Source: Acidobacteriota bacterium (GTDB taxonomy: Bacteria > Acidobacteriota > Aminicenantia > Aminicenantales > Aminicenantaceae). Taken from it: a stretch of DNA of 64,000 nucleotides. The stretch lies in contig DAOVDI010000001.1 in assembly GCA_030669585.1 (NCBI GenBank), forward strand, positions 994 through 64,993. The letters run 5' to 3'. Each line of letters starts with the position of its first letter. Position 1 is the first letter of the stretch. Made by a program: the position numbers and the translations under genes. Below the pieces are notes generated by a model. It searched no databases, was not told where the DNA came from, and was given only the letters and a program-made list of their open reading frames with translations. Below, piece after piece: positions 1,682-47,191 of this stretch.

Positions 1682-1758
1682 TTTTTTTCCTCCGGAAATG
1701 TTTTTTTATTTTATCAGAATATCACTCAAAAAGTCTATCGCCGTTTGTAAGGGAAAAC

Positions 1759-1808
1759 AGTCTATAGAAGTCCATAGAGGTCTATCGGAGTCTATAGAAG
1801 TCGAGAAA
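1759..1808. repeat. Tandem array of five 10-bp units, consensus RAGTCYATNG (copy 1)
   Basis: cagtctatag/aagtccatag/aggtctatcg/gagtctatag/aagtcgagaa. The period is exactly 10 bp. Confidence 0.8.
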
Positions 1809-1866
1809 TTCAAATAAGTTTATTGAGTTTGGTTCGTTTCACTCGCCTGCGAGAAATAACGGGAAG

Positions 1867-1916
1867 AGTCTATAGAAGTCTGTAGGAGTCCATAGGAGTC
1901 TATTGAAGTCGAAATA
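1867..1916. repeat. Tandem array of five 10-bp units, consensus RAGTCYATNG (copy 2)
   Basis: gagtctatag/aagtctgtag/gagtccatag/gagtctattg/aagtcgaaat. It lies 58 bp downstream of copy 1. Confidence 0.8.
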
Positions 1917-1949
1917 AGAAAAGAGGCCAAAGGTGAAAGCCAGACGTCG

Positions 1950-1967
1950 TTCCCACGAAAGTGGGAA
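1950..1967. repeat. Hairpin module TTCCCAC-GAAA-GTGGGAA
   Basis: Perfect 7-bp stem with a GAAA tetraloop inside the repeat complex. Confidence 0.6.
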
Positions 1968-2040
1968 TCCAGTTTATTGGGTTCGTTGGGTTATTTTAAT
2001 AATATCTAACTCAACAAATTCAATGAGCTCAAAGAACTGG

Positions 2041-2060
2041 ATTCCCGTTTGCACGGGAAT
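2041..2060. repeat. Hairpin module ATTCCCGT-TTGC-ACGGGAAT, REP-like
   Basis: Perfect 8-bp stem. The same module occurs at 46819-46838 and, with compensatory changes, at 61793-61812. Confidence 0.7.
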
Positions 2061-2164
2061 GACGGAGAAGCGAATGCACTTATTAAGTCGTTAGAAAAAA
2101 AAGCACTTGAATCCTCGAACCCTATCTTCTTTTCACTTGAATCCTTGAACCCTTTACATCAACT

Positions 2165-2216
2165 ACTGGATTATATATAAGAAGTTATGTTAGGTTATCG
2201 GCAGTTTTTATGAATA
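2165..2216 (+). repeat. 52-bp perfect direct repeat, copy 1. It is part of a tandem duplication of about 312 bp.
   Basis: actggattatatataagaagttatgttaggttatcggcagtttttatgaata is identical to 2477-2528. The similarity extends about 40 bp further upstream as a near-match. Confidence 0.9.
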
Positions 2217-2229
2217 GCGCAACTAACCT

Positions 2230-2350
2230 GGATTATTCACGGGTCGAGATTGGTGCAGATGTAAGGCATGGCGGGTGAAGCTGTGGTTATCCACCGCAAA
2301 CCCGTCATAACGCAGCAGATGTGCCGAGATTCGGCCCGCCTGAAAGGGAA
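2230..2350. ncRNA. Structured-RNA-like repeat module, copy A. Candidate ncRNA, function unknown.
   Basis: Shares an outer stem (CGGGTCGAGATT / AAGATCGGCCCG) and an inner stem-loop around GTGAAGCTGT with the copies at 46888-47005 and 47078-47182. Stems differ between copies by compensatory substitutions. Confidence 0.35.
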
Positions 2351-2476
2351 AAAATGCCGATAATAAAAATAGTATTAAAGGATTCGAGGGGTCGAGTGAA
2401 AAGAAAAAATATAAGAGTTTAATTAAAAGCACTTGAATCCTTGGACCCTTGAATCCTCGAACCCTTTGCTTCAAAT

Positions 2477-2528
2477 ACTGGATTATATATAAGAAGTTAT
2501 GTTAGGTTATCGGCAGTTTTTATGAATA
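2477..2528 (+). repeat. 52-bp perfect direct repeat, copy 2
   Basis: Identical to 2165-2216. Confidence 0.9.
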
Positions 2529-2542
2529 AAGCAGGATAGATA

Positions 2543-4267
2543 TTGCGGAGAAAGAACATGGAAAAAGAAAAAACAGAAAATAACGACAGCAAAACCCTGG
2601 ATTTTATCCGCACCATTGTCGAAGAAGATATTAAAAGCAGAAAACACAACTGCCGTATCCATACACGGTTCCCTCCCGAACCCAACGGGTATCTTCATAT
2701 CGGCCATGCCAAATCTATCTGCTTGAACTTCGGGATCGCAGCCGAGTATAAAGGGCTGTGCAATCTGCGTTTTGACGACACCAATCCCACTAAAGAAGAA
2801 ATTGAATATGTGGATTCCATAAAAAAGGATATTCGCTGGCTTGGTTTTGATTGGGCTGACAGAGAATATTATGCATCCGATTATTACTAGCAGCTTTACG
2901 AATTTGCTCTCAGGCTCATTAAAAAAGGCAAGGCTTATGTATGCGATCTGAGTGCGGATGAGATCAGAAAGACCCGTGGAACTTTAACAAAACCCGGGAC
3001 GGACAGTCCCTTTCGAAACCGCCCGGTCGAGGAAAATTTGGACCTCTTCAAAAGAATGAAGTCCGGGGAGTTCCCAGACGGCAGCCGTACGCTTCGGGCC
3101 AGGATCGATATGGCCTCTCCGAATCTCAACATGCGCGACCCTGTGATCTACCGGATCCTGAGAGCCACACACCACCGCACCAAAGACACCTGGTGCATCT
3201 ATCCCATGTACGATTATGCCCATCCTGTCTCTGATTCTCTGGAAAAGATCACCCATTCTCTATGCACCCTGGAGTTTGAAGACCACAGGCCCATATATAA
3301 CTGGTTCCTCGAAGAACTGGATATTTTTCGCTCCAGACAGATAGAGTTCGCGCGCCTCAACCTCACTTACACCATAATGAGCAAGCGAAAACTGCTTGAA
3401 CTGGTTAACCATGGATTCGTCAGCGGATGGGATGACCCGCGGATGCCGACCATATCCGGCCTGCGGCGGCGGGGATATTCACCAGCCGCCATCCGCGAAT
3501 TTTGCAAACGCATCGGTCTGGCCAAGCGGGAAAGTATGGTGGAGATCTCCCTTCTGGAATACTGTCTCCGGGAGGATATGAACAAACACGCACCCCGTAT
3601 TATGGCTGTTCTTCAGCCCCTGAAAGTGATCATTGACAACTATCCAGAAGACCGCGTTGAATGGCTGGATGCAGAAAATAATCCCGAAGACTCTTCCATG
3701 GGATCAAGAAAGCTGCCGTTCTCCCGGACCGTTTATATCGAGCAGGAGGATTTTCGCGAGGACCCGCCGAAAAAATTTTTCCGTCTGGCCCCCCGCCGCG
3801 AGATCCGGTTGAAACACGCCTATTACATCAAATGTGAAAAAGTGGTCAAGGATGAAAAAACCGGGGAAATCATTGAACTTCACTGCACCTATGACCCAAA
3901 ATCCCGGGGCGGATGGACAAATGACGGCCGGAAAGTACGTGGCACTTCACACTGGGTCTCTGCTGCGCACGCACTGCCTGCAGAAGTGCGGCTTTATACC
4001 CACCTGTTTATAAAAAAGGACACAGGAGAAGTGGAAGATGGAAAAGACTTTAAGGACTACATTAATCCCGAATCCCTTGAAATATTAAGAGATTGTCTGG
4101 TCGAACCCAGTCTGAAAGACGCTGAAACGGGAACAAAATACCAATTTCTCCGGCAGGGCTATTTCTGCGTTGACCCAGACTCCTCCAAAGATAAACTTGT
4201 GTTCAACAGGACTGTAACACTTAGAGACACCTGGGCAAAAATTCAAAGATCCATGTGTCTTTTTTGA
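2543..4267 (+). CDS. glnS: Glutaminyl-tRNA synthetase, interrupted by a single in-frame TAG at 2888-2890. Both flanks are in the same frame. It is either a pseudogene, an assembly error or a suppressed stop.
   Basis: ORFs 2543..2890 and 3038..4267 are in the same frame. Together they span a full-length GlnRS carrying the HIGH motif (PNGYLHIGH) and a well-conserved catalytic and anticodon-binding body. The TAG aligns with the Asp of E. coli ...SDYFDQLH... (ours ...SDYY*QLYEF...). Confidence 0.85.
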
Positions 4268-4336
4268 ACTGAAAAAAAACCGGGCGGAATTAATTTGATT
4301 TCATCAACTTAGACAGCCAATCCTTATAATTTTTTG

Positions 4337-4372
4337 ATTGACATCAGGAATTTTCAGGTGTTATTCTTTTAT
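4337..4372 (+). promoter_or_regulatory. Candidate sigma70-type promoter for the sensor kinase gene. TTGACA, a 17-bp spacer, then TTATTC.
   Basis: Consensus -35 hexamer with a weak -10, about 10 bp upstream of the ATG at 4376. Confidence 0.25.
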
Positions 4373-4375
4373 TAA

Positions 4376-6328
4376 ATGAATGAAAAAAAAAGAAAAATTC
4401 TGATAGTCGAAGACGAACTAATAATCGCCAACGATCTGAAGTTAGTATTGTCCGGATTGGGGTATGAAATATCTTCGGTTGCCGCTACAGCGGAGGAAGC
4501 CATAAACGCAGTGGAAAAAAACCGGCCGGATCTCGTACTGATGGACATTGTTCTCAAAGGGGAAAAAGACGGCATTGAAACGGCCGAAGTAATCATTTTG
4601 CGTTTTGATATTCCTGTCGTATATTTAACGGCTTTTTCAAATCAAAACGTGCTGGACAGGGCAAAAAAAACCAGACCTTATGGATTTATTGCCAAACCAG
4701 TTGATAGAGAAACTCTTCATACGACTATCGAAGTAGCCATAAGCAAACATGAAGCGGAAAAACTGCTAAAGAAAAGTGAAGAGAAATACCGTCTTCTCTA
4801 TACTTCAATGAATGAGGGATTCAGCCTGAATGAATTAGTGTTTGATGAATCCGGGAAGGCTGTTGACTACAGGATATTGGATGCAAATCCGGCATTTCAG
4901 AGGATAACCGGACTGAAGGGAAAAACAATTCTGGGGAAAAAGGCATCTGAACTGTACGGTCAGGAAAAGCCTTTATTTCTGGAAATATATGCCAGAGTAT
5001 CTTCATCCGGAAAACCCGAATCGTTTGATGCCAATTTCCCAAAAATTGATAAATACATCAATTTTTCTGTTTTCTCTCCCACAGAGGGAAAGTTTGCGGT
5101 TTTGATGGCAGACATCACCACCCGGAAAAAAGCCAACCAGGCTAAAAACACATTTCTTGCCAATGTATCCAATGAAATACGCACCCCAATGAATGCTATT
5201 ATGGGCTTTTTGCAACTTCTGAATGATACCGCCCTGGATAAAGTGCAGAAAGGCTATGTGAACACAATCATTAATAGCGGCAATATCCTACTTACCCTTA
5301 TCAATGATATTTTGGATTTATCAAAAATGAAATTAGAAAAGATTACCCTGGAATCTATAAATTTCGACCTGGAAACTCTTATAAAAAGTATGGTCAAGAT
5401 CATAAGTTCAAAAATCGCGGGAAAAAAAATCAAGCTTAATTACAGGCTGGAAGAAGGCCTTCCGAAGAGATTTAAAGGCGATCCAACACGTATTAGACAG
5501 ATATTACTTAATCTGCTCAGCAATGCCGTAAAGTTTACCAGGGAAGGAGAGATCCTGGTAACTGCAAGACCGGCAAAAAGAGAAGAGAAGCAGCCCCTAT
5601 CAGGAAATAATATGTGGGTTGTAGAATTTTCCATAAAAGACACGGGCATCGGAATTGCAAAAGACAAACAGAAGATAATATTTGATGCCTTTTCCCAGGC
5701 CGATACTTCCACTTCCATAAAATATATGGGTATGGGCCTAGGCCTGGCTATATCGCGGGCACTGGTTAAAGAAATGGGCGGAGATATCCGGGTTGAATCC
5801 GAAGTTGGGAAGGGCAGCGATTTTGTTTTTACTCTACTATTAAAGGAAGCTTCGCCCATTTCGCAGGTGGATATAACCCCAGTCGAACTAACAAAACTGA
5901 AAGACAAAAAAATCCTTATTGTTGATGACAATAAATATTCCCGGCAGTTGTATGCCGAATACTGCAAAAGTTTTGGTATAAAAGACCTCCATGAAACTTC
6001 TTCGGCTGCAAAGGCATTGGAATGGCTGAAGGTGCAGGCTAAGCTGCCGGATCTGATGCTTATTGACATAATGATGCCTGAGATAGACGGGTACGAATTT
6101 GCCGGGATCATCAGAAGCGAAAACAGGTTCATGCCCATTAAACTGCTGGCAATGGATTCTGAGGCCGGACCAGGCTCAGCAAAAAAAACAAAGGAACATT
6201 TTTATGACGCATATTTAGCCAAGCCAGTTAATAAAGACGACCTCTTAATGGTTATCCAGACAACATTAGGCGACAAACGGAAAGAAGGCCAGATAATAAC
6301 CAAGCATATGGCCAGAGAATACTCTTAA
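4376..6328 (+). CDS. Hybrid sensor histidine kinase/response regulator. Domain order is REC, PAS, HisKA, HATPase_c, REC.
   Basis: N-terminal receiver (ILIVEDE...DLVLMDI), H-box (NEIRTPMNAIMGF), ATPase G-boxes (DTGIGI, GMGLGLAI) and a C-terminal receiver (ILIVDDN...LMLIDIMMPEIDG). Confidence 0.9.
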   Translation: MNEKKRKILIVEDELIIANDLKLVLSGLGYEISSVAATAEEAINAVEKNRPDLVLMDIVLKGEKDGIETAEVIILRFDIPVVYLTAFSNQNVLDRAKKTRPYGFIAKPVDRETLHTTIEVAISKHEAEKLLKKSEEKYRLLYTSMNEGFSLNELVFDESGKAVDYRILDANPAFQRITGLKGKTILGKKASELYGQEKPLFLEIYARVSSSGKPESFDANFPKIDKYINFSVFSPTEGKFAVLMADITTRKKANQAKNTFLANVSNEIRTPMNAIMGFLQLLNDTALDKVQKGYVNTIINSGNILLTLINDILDLSKMKLEKITLESINFDLETLIKSMVKIISSKIAGKKIKLNYRLEEGLPKRFKGDPTRIRQILLNLLSNAVKFTREGEILVTARPAKREEKQPLSGNNMWVVEFSIKDTGIGIAKDKQKIIFDAFSQADTSTSIKYMGMGLGLAISRALVKEMGGDIRVESEVGKGSDFVFTLLLKEASPISQVDITPVELTKLKDKKILIVDDNKYSRQLYAEYCKSFGIKDLHETSSAAKALEWLKVQAKLPDLMLIDIMMPEIDGYEFAGIIRSENRFMPIKLLAMDSEAGPGSAKKTKEHFYDAYLAKPVNKDDLLMVIQTTLGDKRKEGQIITKHMAREYS

Positions 6329-6331
6329 AAA

Positions 6332-6913
6332 ATGAGTTTAAAACCTGAAGAAGTCATTAAGATATTCAAAGATACGGGCGCATTGCTGGAAGGACATTTC
6401 AAGCTGACTTCCGGACTTCACAGCGCGACATATTTCCAGTGCGCCAAGGTCCTCCAGTATCCATGGCATGCGGAAACTTTATGCCGGGAGATCGCAGAAC
6501 ATTTCAAAAATACCAACATCGAAACTGTTGTTTCGCCGGCAGTCGGAGGAATCGTTTTCGGCCAGGAAATCGCCAGATTATTGGGTGTGCGCGCTATTTT
6601 CGCCGAGAGGGTCGAAAAGCAGATGACCCTTAGGCGTGGATTCGACATTTCTCCCGGCGAGAGGATCCTTCTCGCAGAGGACGTAACAACAACAGGCGGC
6701 TCAGTTAAAGAGGTTATGTCCCTGGCCCAGGAGCGCGGCGCAGAGATCGCAGCCGTCACCTCGGTTGTTGACAGGAGCGGAGGCCAGGCTCAGTTCGGAG
6801 TTCCTTACTTCTCTCTATTCCAGATGGATGTCACCAACTATGACCCTGAAAACTGCCCTATGTGTAAAGCAGGAAGCCAGGCAGTCAAGCCTGGCAGCCG
6901 TGGATTGAAGTAA
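6332..6913 (+). CDS. pyrE: Orotate phosphoribosyltransferase, short Gram-positive/archaeal type
   Basis: PRPP-binding motif ILLAEDVTTTGGS, about 190 aa. Confidence 0.75.
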   Translation: MSLKPEEVIKIFKDTGALLEGHFKLTSGLHSATYFQCAKVLQYPWHAETLCREIAEHFKNTNIETVVSPAVGGIVFGQEIARLLGVRAIFAERVEKQMTLRRGFDISPGERILLAEDVTTTGGSVKEVMSLAQERGAEIAAVTSVVDRSGGQAQFGVPYFSLFQMDVTNYDPENCPMCKAGSQAVKPGSRGLK

Positions 6914-6919
6914 CAAATA

Positions 6920-8662
6920 TCAGTTTGGAGGCTCCCCTTTTTGGTTCCAGCCTTTTAATTTGTAATATTGACCTACTAATTCATTAAATAAATCTCTATC
7001 AAGTTTTTCACCCCGCATAAAACCTGCAAGGGATGTTTCATTAAAAAAACGATCAGGCAGGATATCATCCATGTGTTTTCGTCCATTTCTTAAATTATAT
7101 CTGCGTGCCAGATCCGTTATTTTTTCCCCGATCTTCTGCAGAGATTCTCCTGTGTGTTCAAAACCAGTTGCCGCATTGAGGACTCTTGCAAGACTTTCCA
7201 GGCCTTCCGGAACAAAATCACAAATAACCAGGCTGTTTCTGATATTTATAATATCGATTCCTTCTGATACGGCATGGGGAATATGTTCGATCTTAAAATC
7301 CGGACCAAATTCCTGTTCCGCGATCCAAAGTCTTGTATGGCTGGCGAAATCAGCCACTGCCATGGCCACCCCCATGGCTAAAGAACCAAGGGGATTTATA
7401 CCTGACAGCTCCATCCCATAGATATTGATCGCAAATTCCTTGCTTCCTTTTCCGATTTTTAATGCGGCCGCCTTTGTACCGTCAGCAAATAGTTTTCCAA
7501 CTCCTTTTCTAAAAGCCATCATTTCGATAAGCTCACGCTGAGCCTTGGCATTTCCCCATGTCAGATCTATACCATCCCAATTTTCAACCAGCCCTTTTTC
7601 GTAACATTCCATGGCAAAACCAACTGTTCCGCCAGCACTGATCGTATCCAGGCCAAGATCATTGCACATCTCATTGACCAGAGCCACGTCTTTAATATCA
7701 TTAACCTCACAGTTAGATCCGAAAAAAGCTGTTGTTTCATATTCAGGTCCTTCAATCTCATGCCCGTCCCATCGAGCCCATTTCGAGCATCTGATCGCAC
7801 AATTATAACAAGCCGTGTCTTCCCAGTTTAATTCTTTCCGGGCTGTTTCAGAACTGATTTTTTCAAAATCATCAAACTGCACTTTCTGCCAGTTTTTCGT
7901 CGGAAGATATTCCATTTCCTGGCCGCTTCTAATACATTTCATCGTTCCTTTAACACGACGAAACTTAACACCTTCATTATTTAAAATCGCCTTGGTTAAC
8001 TCTTTATTTACTTCAATGAATTTCTCTTCATCGTAATATTTTATTGGGGTGCTTCCGTCAACAACAATTGCTTTCAGATTTTTTGAACCCATAACAGCGC
8101 CTACCCCACCACGTCCATAGTTTCTATGTTTATCAATGCCTATACAAGAAATAAGCAAGAGGTTCTCACCTGCCGGACCGATCACAGCAACTCTTGGATT
8201 TTTACCATGATGAAGTTTTAATAACTCATCGCTTGTGTTAAAAATTCCTTTTCCCCACAGGCCGGATGCATCTTTTATCTCAACTTTTTCATCCGTAAGA
8301 TAGATATAAACAGGTTTATCAGCTTTTCCCATTACAATAAAATAATCAAATCCAGCCCTTTTTATTGCAGGGCCAAAATTTCCGCCGCAGTGTGAATCAT
8401 GTGCTGAGTTTGTTAAAGGAGATTTTGTCACTAAAGTTGTTCTGGCGCTGGTCTGAACTTTAGTGCCGGTAAAAGGGCCATTCACAAATATCAATGGATT
8501 TTCAGCGCTAAAGGGATCAGGATTAGGAGCTATTTTATCGAGGATGGCAAAACCCAGTCCTTTTCCGCCGATATATTCTTTTACCAGTTCTTTATCAGTA
8601 TCACGAATTTCATGTGTTCCTGACGAAAGATCGATCTGTATATATTTTCCTGTATATGACAT
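6920..8662 (-). CDS. aor: Aldehyde:ferredoxin oxidoreductase, tungsten/molybdopterin AOR family
   Basis: 580 aa. The AOR N-terminal domain and Fe-S cysteine pattern (CYNCAIRC) are family hallmarks. Confidence 0.85.
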   Translation of the reverse strand: MSYTGKYIQIDLSSGTHEIRDTDKELVKEYIGGKGLGFAILDKIAPNPDPFSAENPLIFVNGPFTGTKVQTSARTTLVTKSPLTNSAHDSHCGGNFGPAIKRAGFDYFIVMGKADKPVYIYLTDEKVEIKDASGLWGKGIFNTSDELLKLHHGKNPRVAVIGPAGENLLLISCIGIDKHRNYGRGGVGAVMGSKNLKAIVVDGSTPIKYYDEEKFIEVNKELTKAILNNEGVKFRRVKGTMKCIRSGQEMEYLPTKNWQKVQFDDFEKISSETARKELNWEDTACYNCAIRCSKWARWDGHEIEGPEYETTAFFGSNCEVNDIKDVALVNEMCNDLGLDTISAGGTVGFAMECYEKGLVENWDGIDLTWGNAKAQRELIEMMAFRKGVGKLFADGTKAAALKIGKGSKEFAINIYGMELSGINPLGSLAMGVAMAVADFASHTRLWIAEQEFGPDFKIEHIPHAVSEGIDIINIRNSLVICDFVPEGLESLARVLNAATGFEHTGESLQKIGEKITDLARRYNLRNGRKHMDDILPDRFFNETSLAGFMRGEKLDRDLFNELVGQYYKLKGWNQKGEPPN

Positions 8663-8804
8663 AGTGAAAAAATTTTATACAAATAAGCGAAGTTTATCAA
8701 TACAATACAAAAAAGGGTTCGAGGATTCTACTCGAATCCTTGAATCCTATTTTTATTATCGGCACTGTTTTAGCAGGTGAACTTCTTGAAGTTTCAACCG
8801 CGTT

Positions 8805-10034
8805 GTGATAGAAATTTTTCGAATGACAACACACAAAAAATATATCATCCTGGCAGCAATGGTCATTCTCACCATTACGCAGGTTTTACCCTGCGAATAC
8901 AACATACGTGATTCCGGTTTTGTGGAGATAGCGCCACAACCTTATCTACTATATTTTTATGTGGACAGCGCCATCTCCGAAGAAAAGATTCGATTTTTCA
9001 ATAAAATTTCCCAAACCCTCTTTAGAGATACAAATATCACTCCTGAGACCATCCATATCAAAAAATCCAAAAAATCCACAGCTTTGGAGTATTTTCGTTT
9101 CTGGAACATCGATTCCCTGCCCGCCCTCATCCTTGTCTCTCCTGACAAACGCTCCATACTTCTCCCCATAGACCATACAGAAAAAAATTTTGGTCAAGCT
9201 CTCTGGGATACCCTGGACAAAACTGCGGTCTCTCCTGTTCGAGACAAGGTGCTGGAAAACATCGTTCGATCATACGCAGTTATTCTTCTTTTTGAAGGTA
9301 AAGACCCCGCGAATAACCAGGCTGCGCTTAATAAGATCGATACAGCCAAAAAAAACATTTCCCGCCTGATGACCCAGCTTCCCAAACGGATCGAAAAACC
9401 ACCTCATCTTATTGTTCTCTCCCGAAACAAAATACGCCGGGAGAAGATCCTTCTCTGGAGCCTGGACATTGAAATAAACGGACCGGATGAATCTAAAATC
9501 GTGATCCTTTTCGGACGGGGACGGATTTTTTTAACACCGCTCAAAAGCAATCAGGTCTCATCCTCCCAACTGACCAACATCCTGTCCATTCTGGGCCTCT
9601 CCTGCGACTGTGGACTGGACAAGCGAGGCATGATGGGCCCCAGGCTTCCCCTGCGATGGGATGCTGCGATCCAGGCGCAGATCGTGAAGTATCTGGGTTT
9701 TGATGCTGAAAATCCCATGATCAGACAGGAAATCGCCGGCATCCTTTCCACGGAAAATTTCCGTTCGTCAGTACTCTCTATGGAAGAGAATAAAATTAAA
9801 GGCTCTTTGATGGAGCTTAATCTTTACAGCGAATCCATACAGTCATTCGGCCGGCGCTTCAGTTCAAAACGGATCTCACCGGCTCAAAATCAGGGCCTGG
9901 GCACATCCCGCTCCAACAGGACAGGGCCGGTATCAAATTCCATCCGGCTGGTTGCAGCCGGGGCAGTTATCCTTGCAATCATACTTGTCATAAGTCTAAC
10001 CATTTTTATAAAGAGACGGAGAAAAAAATTATGA
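8805..10034 (+). CDS. Hypothetical membrane-anchored protein with an N-terminal signal-anchor and a C-terminal TM helix followed by RRRKKL
   Basis: Hydrophobic N- and C-termini. Its stop overlaps the start of the downstream giant gene (ATGA), indicating an operon. Confidence 0.5.
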   Translation: MIEIFRMTTHKKYIILAAMVILTITQVLPCEYNIRDSGFVEIAPQPYLLYFYVDSAISEEKIRFFNKISQTLFRDTNITPETIHIKKSKKSTALEYFRFWNIDSLPALILVSPDKRSILLPIDHTEKNFGQALWDTLDKTAVSPVRDKVLENIVRSYAVILLFEGKDPANNQAALNKIDTAKKNISRLMTQLPKRIEKPPHLIVLSRNKIRREKILLWSLDIEINGPDESKIVILFGRGRIFLTPLKSNQVSSSQLTNILSILGLSCDCGLDKRGMMGPRLPLRWDAAIQAQIVKYLGFDAENPMIRQEIAGILSTENFRSSVLSMEENKIKGSLMELNLYSESIQSFGRRFSSKRISPAQNQGLGTSRSNRTGPVSNSIRLVAAGAVILAIILVISLTIFIKRRRKKL

Positions 10035-14590: not shown

Positions 14591-14601
14591 AAAATATGGA
14601 G

Positions 14602-14847
14602 TTACTTCTTATATATATCGCCTCTTGTATCAATTTTTAAAATCTTGATAATCTCTTTATCTTTTATAAACAGAATTCTATATTTTCCAAGTCGCAAACG
14701 AAAAATATTTTTCACACTTCCCCCCTTATATTTTCTCACATCCCCTTCACCAGGGAGATTTTCACATGCTTCAACAAGTTTTTTAGCGGTTTTTAGTTCC
14801 AGTTTTTTTAAATATTTCAGGCTTGATCTGCTGAAAAAAACAGTCAT
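14602..14847 (-). CDS. Type II toxin, RelE/ParE family
   Basis: 81 aa with the ...GDVRKYKG...FRLRLGKYRILF...KILKIDTRGDIYK pattern. It overlaps the upstream antitoxin by 4 nt. Confidence 0.7.
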   Translation of the reverse strand: MTVFFSRSSLKYLKKLELKTAKKLVEACENLPGEGDVRKYKGGSVKNIFRLRLGKYRILFIKDKEIIKILKIDTRGDIYKK

Positions 14848-15098
14848 AAATCGAGATTCTTTTTGACATCATCAATCGAAATAAATTCGTCTTTCTCTAA
14901 GATTTCCAGAATTTCTTCTTCATCTTGAGCACTGAGAATTATTTCTTCTTTTTTCCCCATTATATTTTTAATCCAATCTCTTAATGAAAGACGAATAATA
15001 TTAGAAATACTCTCATTCCTGATATAAGAAAGTGCTCGAAGCTTCTTATAAAGATCTTCATCAATAGTTATATTTAATCTTTTCATCTGATGCCTCAA
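14844..15098 (-). CDS. Type II antitoxin, ribbon-helix-helix (CopG-like)
   Basis: 84 aa with an N-terminal RHH-like segment (NITIDEDLYKKLRALSYIRNESISNIIRLSL). It overlaps the toxin by 4 nt. Confidence 0.55.
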   Translation of the reverse strand: MRHQMKRLNITIDEDLYKKLRALSYIRNESISNIIRLSLRDWIKNIMGKKEEIILSAQDEEEILEILEKDEFISIDDVKKNLDL

Positions 15099-15312
15099 TA
15101 CATATATACATCATTGCGCATAATATTTCAATATTTTCACAATTTTCCTCACACCCCATTTACATATTCTATCTGTGTAAGGATTTCTTGCATTTGAAAA
15201 GCATTCTATCCATAATATCTGGGGAAATTTGTGGCATAATTCTTGCTTCATATCAGTTAGAAGTACGGTCTCAATGTTCCAAGGTTGGAATAAACGTATC
15301 AGGAGGTGATGA

Positions 15313-15540
15313 ATGAATAAGGCACTGATTTTCATTTTAGCGTTTTTATTGGCGTATTCCGCTTGTACAGAAAAAATAGAGGAAACGGTGGAAAAGCAGC
15401 CGGAATATCCTGTTCTCATAGAAACAGTGGATGGCATCAAGACCATTAAAAACCCGGATTTTCCCCGTGACGGTCAAATCCAATATAAATTTGCAGAGGA
15501 ATTGTCCATTGGAGGGGAAGGCGAATCATGGTCGTGTTAG
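15313..15540 (+). CDS. Lipoprotein N-terminal fragment. Probably the 5' part of a frameshifted six-bladed beta-propeller lipoprotein gene.
   Basis: Signal peptide with a lipobox (LAYSAC). It ends at a TAG and overlaps the next ORF in another frame. IGGEGE resembles IGDEEGEG of the paralogue at 45514. Confidence 0.45.
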   Translation: MNKALIFILAFLLAYSACTEKIEETVEKQPEYPVLIETVDGIKTIKNPDFPRDGQIQYKFAEELSIGGEGESWSC

Positions 15541-15908
15541 GTTACAACAAAGATTACTTGATCAACGTTTTAGACTTTGAAGGGAATCCCCTTTTTCGAT
15601 TCAAAAGGGAATACATCCCGGGAAAATTCGAAGCTTGGAAACCTGGCAGCATCCTGCCAAAATTTAATCCGGCTTTTTACAAATATATAATTCTTGACGA
15701 CAACAAAAACCTCTGGTTCAGACAGTACACTAAAAGTACTGTAACAGACAGTATATATGATATTTTTTCCCCAGACGGTATTTATATCCAACAGGCTGTC
15801 GTGCCTCACCGCATATATCAGATAAAAAACAGAAAGGCTTACTGTATCATCCGGACCGAGGAAGACTATCGTATCGTCAAACGCTTTAGAATGATAGAAT
15901 TGGAATAG
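15528..15908 (+). CDS. Beta-propeller lipoprotein fragment, continuation of 15313..15540 after a frameshift
   Basis: Its frame-0 reading frame is open from 15489. Similar to the N-terminal region of the 45514..46731 protein. Confidence 0.45.
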   Translation: MVVLGYNKDYLINVLDFEGNPLFRFKREYIPGKFEAWKPGSILPKFNPAFYKYIILDDNKNLWFRQYTKSTVTDSIYDIFSPDGIYIQQAVVPHRIYQIKNRKAYCIIRTEEDYRIVKRFRMIELE

Positions 15909-15975
15909 TTGGTATCAGCTTTAATCAAGTTGAAATATAACAAACGAGACAAACGGGATGAACGAGATTAACAAG

Positions 15976-17454
15976 TCATGAATGATGGAGGCTGGAATTT
16001 TTTGTGTCCAACATAACATTCTGACGAAAATCCGCCACGATTTTTGTTCCTTTCCGCGGTTTTAACAGATTTAGAAGTTTTAAATAAAGCTTGTTTTTCC
16101 TGTTCCAGTGGGCGTTGAGACTGCGGGCATACCAAGCGATAGAAATATCCATAAACCTAAACCGCAGTAAACGGCGTAGGGACTGCAATGGAGAGTAAAA
16201 CCGTCGGTGCGCCCACATTTGGGCTCGCTGCAGCTCTTCAAGCGAAAAATTTTTCGGCTGGAACACAACATGGTGAGCATCATACAGGCTCCAGTCCGAA
16301 AAACGGATGCGGCCTTCGGAAAGGAGGTCTTCATAACACCGGGTTCCCGGTAAAGGTGTAAGGATCAGAAATTGGGACGAGTTCAGACAATACCGCTTGG
16401 CAAAACGGACCGTATCCTTCACGCTTGCAAAGCTGTCATTTTCCAACCCCAGGATAAACATCCCATGGACATGGATGCGATGCTTTTGAAATATTCGAGC
16501 CGCCCTTTCCATTTCAGCCAGACTTTGCTGCTTTTTGACTGATTTTAAGCTCTCTTCGTTCACCGATTCAAACCCGATGTAAACAGTGTGACAACCCGCC
16601 CGTCTCATCAATCGGACCAGATCTTCGTCCCCGGCAAAGTCCACCCGCACCTGAGTAGACCATCTGAATTTGAATTTTTCAGCTTCCATAGCTTTGAGAA
16701 GCTCTGCAGCCCGCTTGGAATTTGCCCCGAAGTTGTCGTCGTAGAAGAAAATATCATGTTTACGGTCATCGTAGAGGCGCAGTTCATTGATGATGTGTTC
16801 TATAGAACGGTACCGGTATCTTCGGCCGAACATCCCAGTCACCGAACAAAACGAACAGTCAAATGGACACCCCCTTGATGTCTGAAATGGAATAAGCCGC
16901 CAACCTGCGATACATTTTGGTTTTCCTTTGATAAGCGAAAAATCAGGATAGGGCAGAAAATCAAGGTCTACAGGTACAGCCTGGTTCATATTATGACGGA
17001 TGTCTCCGTTGATCTTGTAACTGAGATTGGGCACTTCCTCTAGATCATCCTCATCTTCAACTGCTTTTAAAAACAACGGAAATGCTGTTTCCCCCTCTCC
17101 ACGGATCACAAAATCACAATGACCCAGGGCCTCATCAGGAAGGAAGGTGACATGAGGACCACCCATCACTACCGTGATCCCCATGGAACGCACTCGATCG
17201 GCAATGGCATAAGCACGCGGCGCTGTGGAGGTGATCGTAGAGATTCCCACAATGTCAGATGCTGCTATTTCGTTCCAGTCGATCTCAGCCTGCTCCTCGA
17301 CCATCACAGAAGCTTCCCAACCGTTCTGTTTGGCAATAGTACCCAACAGGATTGTTCCCAGACGGGGAAGAGGAAACTTCGAAAATATATGTAAATTCGG
17401 GGCCTTTGGTTCAATAAAAGTTATTTTCATTTGGATACACATTCCTTTTTTCAT
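15976..17454 (-). CDS. B12-binding domain radical SAM protein (class B). The true start may be the internal ATG at 17430.
   Basis: N-terminal B12-binding-like region and a CxxxCxxC-type motif (SRGCPFDCSFCS). Confidence 0.8.
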   Translation of the reverse strand: MKKGMCIQMKITFIEPKAPNLHIFSKFPLPRLGTILLGTIAKQNGWEASVMVEEQAEIDWNEIAASDIVGISTITSTAPRAYAIADRVRSMGITVVMGGPHVTFLPDEALGHCDFVIRGEGETAFPLFLKAVEDEDDLEEVPNLSYKINGDIRHNMNQAVPVDLDFLPYPDFSLIKGKPKCIAGWRLIPFQTSRGCPFDCSFCSVTGMFGRRYRYRSIEHIINELRLYDDRKHDIFFYDDNFGANSKRAAELLKAMEAEKFKFRWSTQVRVDFAGDEDLVRLMRRAGCHTVYIGFESVNEESLKSVKKQQSLAEMERAARIFQKHRIHVHGMFILGLENDSFASVKDTVRFAKRYCLNSSQFLILTPLPGTRCYEDLLSEGRIRFSDWSLYDAHHVVFQPKNFSLEELQRAQMWAHRRFYSPLQSLRRLLRFRFMDISIAWYARSLNAHWNRKNKLYLKLLNLLKPRKGTKIVADFRQNVMLDTKNSSLHHS

Positions 17455-26104: not shown

Positions 26105-26276
26105 GATGGATGCTGAGTGTTTCCACGGAATTTTTCGAACCTATATATATGCATATCATATTGACTGATGGAGTTCAAGCGGGCACTTGCTTTCCCCTTA
26201 TAAGGACATGACAGACATTATTCATTTTTGTCTGGCGAAAAAGACGAGGGGATAGGAGAGGTTGAGAAGATGCTCA

Positions 26277-26325
26277 AAGCACTTATTAAGTCGTTAGAAA
26301 GAAAAGCACTTGAACCCTTTGCATC
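26277..26325. repeat. Fragment of the mosaic repeat family, GCACTTATTAAGTCGTTAGAAAGAAAAGCACTTGAACCCTTTGCATC
   Basis: Near-identical to 2075-2125. Confidence 0.8.
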
Positions 26326-45513: not shown

Positions 45514-46731
45514 ATGAAAAAAATCGCCTTATTGCTTTCAATCTTAATTCCGCTGTTTCTCCCTTTAAATGCCACTGATATCCTTTTGATAGGGGACGAG
45601 GAAGGAGAGGGCAAGCTGCTCATGCCCTCCCGGATCGAGGAAGGCCCGGACAGCAACATTTATATCTACGACCAGATGGATTCCCAGATCAAGGTTTTTT
45701 CCCCGGATGGAAAATACTTAAGAAAGATCGGGGGCAAAGGCCAGGGCCCTGGCGAGATCCAGCGTGCAGACGGGTTATCTTTTGGTTTCACTCCGGACGG
45801 AAACCTGTATTTCACAGAATATTTTCAAGGCCATCCCTGGATGACGTTTATGGAGTTATCTGGAACATTTATCAAGGCGTTGAAGTATGATAAGAATAGA
45901 TTTTTCGGCGTCTGGGATGCCGCTCCCCTTCCGGATGGCCGCTTTCTGATCGAATTTCATTACACAGGCAGGCCGGAAAAAAAGAAGGATTATTTCTTCC
46001 ACAGTTCTCCCACTGAACTCACTGTTATCGACTCTTCCGGAAAGCTCCATTCCAGGATCAAAAGCACAAAGCATTTTACCCGGATCTCATTTATGGATTC
46101 AGGCGCTGATTCTCCCATCCCCTTTACCCCTCGCTTTCTCTGGTGCCCATTTAAAATGGGAACGGTTCTATTTTCAGAAGGGCTCAGCACAAAACTTCAG
46201 GTCTATGATTATAATGGAAAACTGGTCAATGAAATTGACACTCCTCTGCCAAAACCGGAAAAAGTCACAGGAAAACATCTGAGCCAATGGCGCGAGGAAA
46301 GGAAGGAAATGATGCGGTCCCGGAATGTTAACTGGTACAACCGGTTCGGCAAAGTCATCGAAAAATACAAAAAATCCATCCACAAGGTGAAACCCAATCT
46401 CTCCGGTTTATCCTTCACACCAGATGGAAATATACTGTTGGCAGGTCAAGGAAATGAAGAAACCCGGTCAACTAAATACTGGCTTCTCGATGAAAAGGGG
46501 CAAACGCTTACCAGGATCAATACAGCGGCTATGGGGATAAAAATATCTCCACAATTTATATTTTTCGGCACAGTGGATGAGGATTATATTATCAAGACCT
46601 ATGCCCTGAAACGACAGGGAGACGAGGCTTCAGACCTCAAACAGGTAGAAGTTTATTTAACCAGGAAAAACAGTCTATCGAAGTCTATTGAGGTCCATAG
46701 AAGTCTATCGAAGTCAAAAAGAGTTTGTTGA
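45514..46731 (+). CDS. Six-bladed beta-propeller lipoprotein-like hypothetical protein. The last roughly 20 codons are encoded by a decamer repeat array.
   Basis: Signal peptide and beta-propeller-like repeats. The C-terminus (...NSLSKSIEVHRSLSKSKRVC) is translated from the 10-bp array at 46671-46720. Confidence 0.55.
   Translation: MKKIALLLSILIPLFLPLNATDILLIGDEEGEGKLLMPSRIEEGPDSNIYIYDQMDSQIKVFSPDGKYLRKIGGKGQGPGEIQRADGLSFGFTPDGNLYFTEYFQGHPWMTFMELSGTFIKALKYDKNRFFGVWDAAPLPDGRFLIEFHYTGRPEKKKDYFFHSSPTELTVIDSSGKLHSRIKSTKHFTRISFMDSGADSPIPFTPRFLWCPFKMGTVLFSEGLSTKLQVYDYNGKLVNEIDTPLPKPEKVTGKHLSQWREERKEMMRSRNVNWYNRFGKVIEKYKKSIHKVKPNLSGLSFTPDGNILLAGQGNEETRSTKYWLLDEKGQTLTRINTAAMGIKISPQFIFFGTVDEDYIIKTYALKRQGDEASDLKQVEVYLTRKNSLSKSIEVHRSLSKSKRVC
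46671..46720. repeat. Tandem array of five 10-bp units, consensus RAGTCYATNG (copy 3)
   Basis: cagtctatcg/aagtctattg/aggtccatag/aagtctatcg/aagtcaaaaa. Confidence 0.8.
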
Positions 46732-46739
46732 GTTTATTG

Positions 46740-46815
46740 GGTTCATTGTGTTCTTTGAGTTATTTTAATTAGATTTAACTCAATAAACCCAATAAGCTCA
46801 ATGAGCTCAAAGAAC
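46740..46815. repeat. Long imperfect dyad of the mosaic repeat family, with about 30-bp arms around TTTTAATTAGATTT
   Basis: tttattgggttcattgtgttctttgagtta...taactcaataaacccaataagctcaatgagctcaaagaac. There is a homologue at 1970-2040 and fragments at 63965-64000. Confidence 0.6.
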
Positions 46816-46818
46816 TGG

Positions 46819-46838
46819 ATTCCCGTTTACACGGGAAT
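46819..46838. repeat. Hairpin module ATTCCCGT-TTAC-ACGGGAAT
   Basis: Same module as 2041-2060 with one loop difference. Confidence 0.7.
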
Positions 46839-46887
46839 GACGAGACAAACGAGATGTACGATTTTATGAATCATTCAGAATCCCTGG

Positions 46888-47005
46888 ATGATTCACGGGT
46901 CGAGATTGCCGTAGCTGCGAGAAGTGGTTCGTGAAGCTGTATTTATATACTGCGAACGGAACACGACGAAGCCACTGCGGTAAGATCGGCCCGCCCGAAG
47001 GGTAA
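46888..47005. ncRNA. Structured-RNA-like repeat module, copy B1
   Basis: Homologous to 2230-2350. Outer stem CGGGTCGAGATT/AAGATCGGCCCG, inner GTTCG-...-CGAAC. Confidence 0.35.
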
Positions 47006-47077
47006 AAAGATAGAAAGAGAGGGTTCAAGGATTCGAGTGTTTTTATTGTGTCCCATTGAATTGAGTGCCTGGACTAT

Positions 47078-47182
47078 TTACGATTCGAGGTTGATGCATC
47101 TGCAAGAGGCTGTTCGTGAAGCCGTATTTATATACTGCGAACGGACAGCAACGCAGCAGATGGGATAAGATCGGCTCGTAAA
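47078..47182. ncRNA. Structured-RNA-like repeat module, copy B2
   Basis: The outer stem shows a compensatory change relative to B1 (CGATT.../...GGCTCG versus CGGGT.../...GGCCCG). Confidence 0.35.
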
Positions 47183-47191
47183 TTGTTCAGG

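Follow-up and report, generated by a model that had tools for sequence, protein, structure and literature searches.

The question that this locus raises is how a gene for glutaminyl-tRNA synthetase (GlnRS) in an uncultured Aminicenantes strain came to carry an amber codon inside its reading frame, and whether this codon stops translation, is read as an amino acid or does not exist in the cells at all. The window is the whole stretch of DNA that was analyzed, 64 kb in length. The gene and the features around it are placed as follows.

1682..2535, no strand: repeat-rich non-coding spacer that stands in place of hslV-hslU, as seen from the upstream genes of relatives (Proteasome, AAA_2) and from shared repeat modules.
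2536..3600, + strand: divergent tract that contains the TAG, with ~49 substitutions (4.7%) in comparison with contig L161.
2547..2550, + strand: GGAG, Shine-Dalgarno-like, 7 nt 5' of the ATG at 2558, read from the sequence and lying within the stretch that is conserved with relatives (2536 onward).
2558..4267, + strand: glnS (glutaminyl-tRNA synthetase), 569 codons, with the internal TAG and the terminal TGA, from translation, Pfam (PF00749, PF03950, PF20974), alignment to the E. coli GlnRS structure and 96% identity to protein P0001.
2696..2707, + strand: HIGH motif codons (His47-His50), 5' of the stop, from translation and alignment to E. coli GlnRS.
2888..2890, + strand: in-frame amber codon (codon 111) with a private A-to-T change at 2888, from translation and codon comparison with contigs L161-L164 (AAG), L165 and L167 (AAT) and L166 (GGG).
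3377..3391, + strand: MSKRK (KMSKS-type) motif, 3' of the stop, from translation and alignment to VMSKRKL of E. coli GlnRS.

The earlier note on this DNA had read the ORFs at 2543..2890 and 3038..4267 as one frame that is parted by a single TAG at 2888-2890, and translation together with Pfam confirms it. The tRNA-synt_1c profile (PF00749) is matched at positions 2-77 before the TAG (E = 1e-33, with PNGYLHIGH present) and at positions 80-313 after it (E = 3e-67), so that there is no indel or frameshift in glnS and exactly one codon has been replaced. Both GlnRS anticodon-binding beta-barrel domains, PF03950 and PF20974, are matched 3' of the stop. The gene is colinear with the E. coli GlnRS structures (PDB 1o0b, 1gtr, 1qtq) over residues 11-562 (E = 5e-216), with the HIGH motif, the MSKRK loop (IMSKRKL in the window protein) and both anticodon-binding domains in common, and the conserved catalytic and anticodon-binding body that had been recognized from the letters is thereby verified. 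What the gene lacks among the marks of a GlnRS is an uninterrupted frame: codon 111 is a TAG where E. coli has the Asp of SDYFDQL (index 105 of chain 1o0b_A), the very residue that had been named for it, and the annotated window product is a 110-amino acid fragment. The ATG at 2558, which the GGAG precedes, is a more likely start than the TTG at 2543, because the closest relative, P0001, is also 569 amino acids long. The earlier estimate of a full-length GlnRS of about 575 codons holds as to an intact, colinear gene, but its length becomes 569 codons with this start.

In a large protein search, P0001 shares 96% protein identity with the window GlnRS, P0002-P0009 share 93-95%, P0010 88% and P0011 82%. 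All of them are uninterrupted, with 565-600 amino acids, and are named Candidatus Aminicenantes where the source gives a name; the closest, at 93-96%, come from metagenome contigs. At the TAG position these relatives have K in seven sequences and N in two, the rest having G, D or E. Among 79 more distant homologues from species-representative genomes (60-72% identity) it is E in 39, D in 20, Q in nine, G in seven, R in two, P in one and A in one. A stop at codon 111 was found in none of these 79 and in none of the seven close contigs, where the flanks of the codon (TAC-xxx-CAG) are identical in the window and the close relatives. Judged by these codons, the TAG is a strain-private A-to-T transversion at 2888 in a Lys codon, AAG, and the site, across the homologues sampled, is one that varies freely (K/N/G/D/E/Q/R/P/A). 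The ancestral codons that had been guessed before (GAG, CAG or TAC) are wrong for this lineage, as the sister strains have AAG. One nonsense codon against full-length relatives is the kind of disabling lesion that a recent pseudogene carries.

The 110-amino acid N-terminal fragment has a single exact match among ~15 billion proteins, P0122 from the source assembly, and the cluster of this fragment has no other member. When 120 short N-terminal fragments of GlnRS were inspected, only one unrelated fragment, from a 940-bp contig, ended at the same point, and on this result a stop that recurs at codon 111 across assemblies was rejected. Many of the 120 end in frameshifted tails, which indicates that broken glnS calls are common in public assemblies. 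In a DNA scan of genome and metagenome contigs with the C-terminal part, the best metagenome matches had <=74% identity; the close relatives described here came from the protein search.

One possible option is that the TAG is regularly decoded, by a pyrrolysine machinery, an amber-suppressor tRNA or an efficient context-dependent readthrough, and that full-length GlnRS is made. The codon replaces a Lys at a site that tolerates almost any residue, which means that the inserted amino acid would probably give an active enzyme, and glnS shows no other decay. The base after the stop is a C, and a C in this position is reported to weaken termination in E. coli. The likeness to pyrrolysine or amber-suppression recoding goes as far as an in-frame UAG in an otherwise intact gene, with Lys at the site in sister strains. 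Yet no orthologue has the TAG at this codon, including the strain that is ~99.8% identical downstream, whereas a programmed recoding site would be expected to be conserved. The ~46 genes that end in the window use TAA 23 times, TGA 16 times and TAG seven times (15%), the last in ackA (61791), an M29 peptidase (41909), an M50 peptidase (27021), a HIT protein (37842) and three others; the TAG of the M50 peptidase is found 18 nt before the trpS start. The view of the earlier note that TAG is a genuine terminator here is borne out by these seven genes. No other in-frame TAG, frameshift or premature stop was found in the other ~46 genes of the 64-kb window, and the window thus shows neither extra in-frame TAGs nor avoidance of TAG as a terminator. 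Its Pfam annotation is that of an ordinary bacterial chromosome (trpS, tyrS, scpAB, fabF, ispH, rpsA, HU, pta-ackA and thiamine genes).

Signals that would accompany a recoded codon were also looked for. ARAGORN found no tRNA gene in the 64-kb window and Pfam scans found no pyl-like gene in it, Rfam gave no match in the window at gathering thresholds and none around glnS with permissive ones, and the 130 nt past the TAG show no excess of RNA structure over shuffled controls (z = 0.27). In organisms that decode Pyl, the methylamine methyltransferase genes contain UAG. The UAG of the window differs from such systems in being unconserved and the sole one in frame, with no pyl genes or tRNA-CUA in the window and with TAG as a normal terminator. 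In a literature search, judged by titles and the openings of abstracts, no paper appeared to address pyrrolysine use by Aminicenantes. Regular decoding of the TAG is, on this balance, unlikely. It is quite improbable, too, that a strain with the TAG in its only glnS makes a working GlnRS from a partly decoded UAG (through a suppressor tRNA, Pyl or leaky termination); if this were true, it would show an essential synthetase relying, in nature, on stop-codon suppression. The TAG has the look of a fresh nonsense mutation or of an error in the consensus rather than of a programmed recoding site. Of the three options that had been offered at first, these two stay live and programmed suppression gains no support, as the TAG is unconserved, is the only one in frame in the window and has nothing near it like a recoding signal or a suppressor tRNA.

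Another way to obtain an active enzyme would be a split GlnRS, in which two pieces, the N-terminal one of 110 residues and a C-terminal one with a start of its own, assemble non-covalently. Some class I synthetases are known to reassemble after they have been cut in experiments, which gives this reading its basis. However, the next in-frame starts past the TAG are a TTG at 3038 and an ATG at 3068 (50 and 60 codons downstream), so that the two pieces would be without residues 112 to ~160 of the catalytic domain, and no relative is split at codon 111. We consider a split enzyme extremely unlikely.

The age of the lesion can be approached from the rest of the gene. The dN/dS values (Nei-Gojobori) of the window glnS against six relatives are 0.13-0.21, and those of relative against relative are 0.14-0.18, with 0.05 against the 88% relative. 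The window branch has 15 private changes, eight non-synonymous (the stop included) and seven synonymous, and the other five branches have 17-37 each, with a total of 48 non-synonymous to 74 synonymous (8:7 vs 48:74, Fisher p = 0.40). By dN/dS and private-change counts, neither relaxed selection nor further lesions were detected in the window glnS, and an old pseudogene was rejected on these results; the number of private changes also gives no sign of a raised error rate on the window branch. Because the purifying selection on the gene equals that of intact orthologues, the TAG lesion is, as far as substitution patterns can date it, very recent or else not real. In every sampled relative glnS is intact and under purifying selection, which suggests that it is needed in these relatives.

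The substitutions of the window branch have a pattern of their own. In the compared interval 2536-4246, 25 of the 26 fall within 2536-3600, and 20 of the 26 are GC-to-AT, 12 of these being G-to-A on the coding strand. The G-to-A changes give D-to-N or E-to-K at codons 31, 90, 138, 145, 248 and 284. This G-to-A excess was considered as a damage signature and dropped, as the other branches show a similar GC-to-AT bias.

A further question that is raised by the position of the TAG is what kind of sequence surrounds it. Over 2536-9807 the window and L161 are 98.6% identical, with differences that are very unevenly spread: 3600-9807 contains 11 substitutions and one 35-bp indel (~0.2% divergence), and the 3' part of glnS differs at four sites, against the 4.7% of the divergent tract. 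Within this tract, roughly similar distances separate the window, L161, L162 and L163 from one another. Homology to all relatives ends at 2536, 22 nt 5' of the ATG, which sets a synteny breakpoint at 2535/2536. In six of the seven sampled relative contigs hslV is directly upstream of glnS, with hslU beyond it in several, and in L166 three small genes are found between hslV and glnS. Upstream of the window glnS there is instead the 850-bp repeat-rich spacer, and beyond it are genes for a GNAT protein and an enoyl-CoA hydratase. In relatives the GNAT gene adjoins a Lon-like protease, and the spacer upstream of GNAT has the same 10-nt periodic repeats; in L165 a part of the window's spacer is inserted between hslV and glnS. 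Because the spacer repeats recur at the GNAT locus and between hslV and glnS of L165, the window junction lies within a repeat family that is present at both parental loci. The left arm, from the junction to the contig end, is <= ~3.6 kb (the source contig is 65,035 bp), and the TAG is within ~4.6 kb of the contig end. The location is thus one where the contig path switches strain or crosses repeats, as would be expected of an artefact. The earlier note contains neither the strain-divergent tract nor the breakpoint nor this contig-end setting of the TAG.

The tract and the breakpoint point to a recombination or rearrangement between co-occurring strains or, equally fitting, to a strain-mosaic assembly. 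The abrupt jump from ~0.2% to 4.7% at ~3600 and the synteny break in shared repeats near a contig end are features of both strain-mosaic metagenome contigs and recombination tracts, and the two look the same in the sequence alone. A serious possibility, although one to which we give somewhat less than an even chance, is that the TAG arose as an artefact of the consensus or of the assembly, with AAG as the true codon and the gene intact in the cells. The T at 2888 would then be an error of base calling or polishing, or it would have entered through a minority path of low coverage, in a region where the metagenome contig is a strain mosaic. Such an origin would fit a stop that is the sole defect in a gene evolving like its functional orthologues and that is unique to the source assembly. 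It would also fit the rise in divergence from L161 and the junction to a short left arm in a repeat family found at both joined loci, which is the classic setting of a strain chimera, and broken GlnRS fragments are common in public metagenome assemblies. On the other hand, the other genes of the 64 kb have no frameshift or premature stop, the private substitutions of the window branch are no higher in number than those of the relatives, and a transversion outside a homopolymer is an uncommon type of error. The dN/dS of the tract (~0.16) indicates genuine sequence from a functional gene of another strain and not noise.

Downstream of this region, in the near-identical contig L161, a 35-bp insertion at window position 4958 splits a response-regulator/histidine-kinase gene (4376-6328) into calls of 254 and 407 amino acids. 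The window copy of this hybrid kinase gene is intact, with 650 amino acids, and the gene is absent from L162, L165 and L167. The insertion is another disruptive variant in the same population or in its assemblies.

The explanation that we favor, with a confidence that comes close to an even chance, is a nonsense allele of very recent origin, private to the strain and carried on a strain-variant segment. In one Aminicenantes strain the A at 2888 would have changed to T, a single transversion that makes a TAG of the AAG (Lys) in glnS, and the changed segment would be the 5' 1 kb of the gene, a recombinant or strain-variant tract beside a rearrangement that repeats have mediated. Translation would end at codon 111, and the 110-residue peptide so released would have HIGH but neither the KMSKS loop nor the anticodon-binding domains, and only a small part of the Rossmann fold; because of these losses the allele would be essentially null, apart from rare near-cognate readthrough. 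The product of such readthrough would probably be active, because K, N, G, D, E, Q, R, P and A are all accepted at the site. A cell with the TAG allele would need to obtain Gln-tRNA through a non-discriminating GluRS and GatCAB. The sequences show the private point change, a gene that is otherwise intact, a stop that is not conserved, and the divergent tract with its breakpoint; that the base is real in the cells, that translation terminates at the TAG and that a backup route exists are three steps that we infer.

Several results argue for a fresh nonsense allele. The 93-96% relatives are all full length, with K or N (AAG or AAT) at the site, and the gene has not accumulated decay, so that the lesion would be young. 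The ~46 other genes, free of frameshifts and stops, speak for a consensus that is accurate in general, an error of the A-to-T transversion type would be atypical away from a homopolymer, and TAG is an ordinary terminator in this DNA. Several phyla have both GlnRS and gatCAB, among them one of the six Acidobacteria that were surveyed (PMC3927822), and a GlnRS pseudogene in Sorangium cellulosum has been cited as evidence for the loss of a horizontally acquired GlnRS (PMC3927822). The case of S. cellulosum is alike in that glnS is disrupted and that the bacterium belongs to a group in which gatCAB is often found together with GlnRS. It differs in that the window has one putative, very young lesion with no other decay, which is unshared by relatives and has been seen in one assembly. 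In a motif scan, neither gatA nor gatB was found in the window or in the fetched relative loci, and there was no second glnS or other backup route in them. Against a fresh nonsense allele stands the constraint on glnS in every sampled relative, as a null allele, if this glnS is the sole one, would not be expected to rise to the frequency of the consensus. It has also been seen only once, in the source assembly, and it lies near the contig end, in a tract where the path departs from that of a near-identical strain, the setting in which a consensus is weakest in quality.

A premature stop of this kind is already known and ordinary: metagenome-assembled genomes routinely contain genes with a single stop and no other defect, which may be young pseudogenes, alleles of a minor strain or errors of the consensus. 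The annotation that suits the glnS of the window is 'interrupted, to be verified'; it should not be taken as evidence of code variation or of GlnRS loss, and the first ~3.6 kb of the contig call for caution, as they may be a strain mosaic. If the T is real and the genome has no transamidation route, an essential synthetase would depend on amber readthrough.

Some minor observations were made elsewhere in the window. A 1.4-kb segment (14597-15976) carries two small ORFs without Pfam matches, at 15111-15446 (- strand) and 15528-15908 (+ strand, ending in TAG). This segment is absent from L162, where a PQQ/malectin gene is followed directly by a radical SAM gene.

The spacer upstream of glnS belongs to a wider set of repeats. 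Arrays with a 10-nt period (GTCTATAGAA-like) are found in the window at 1746-1814, 1854-1922 and 46663-46743, and in L169 at ~2555-2640; spacers 5' of the GNAT gene are among their sites. These arrays are part of a composite repeat, whose modules appear in the same order at 1750-2388 and 46663-47037, with short pieces also at 8731-8770 and 26276-26318. Directly upstream of glnS, an imperfect direct duplication (2099-2216 vs 2425-2528, 83% identity over ~118 nt) flanks a hairpin module, and its 86-nt core (2136-2221 vs 2448-2533) is 93% identical. With its inverted arms at 2127-2156 and 2376-2405, the arrangement suggests that small elements were inserted one within another.

A structured intergenic repeat of ~116 nt is present in six copies, in the window at 2238-2354, 46894-47009 and 47079-47185, in L165 at 482-598 and in L166 at 4079-4174 and 4207-4322. 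In the window and in L165 alike, one copy precedes glnS by ~200 nt and is on the strand of this gene. Its layout is a long interrupted hairpin, a small hairpin and an A-run, with conserved GUGAAGC and CUGCGAAC loops, and G-U pairs indicate the + strand. No match to it was found in Rfam 15. Across the six copies, compensatory changes occur in 16 of 37 base pairs, and 97.6% of cells are paired, compared with 33-42% when the partners are slid by 1-3 columns. This repeat could be a mobile element that resembles a MITE, or else a small RNA that has not been described before.
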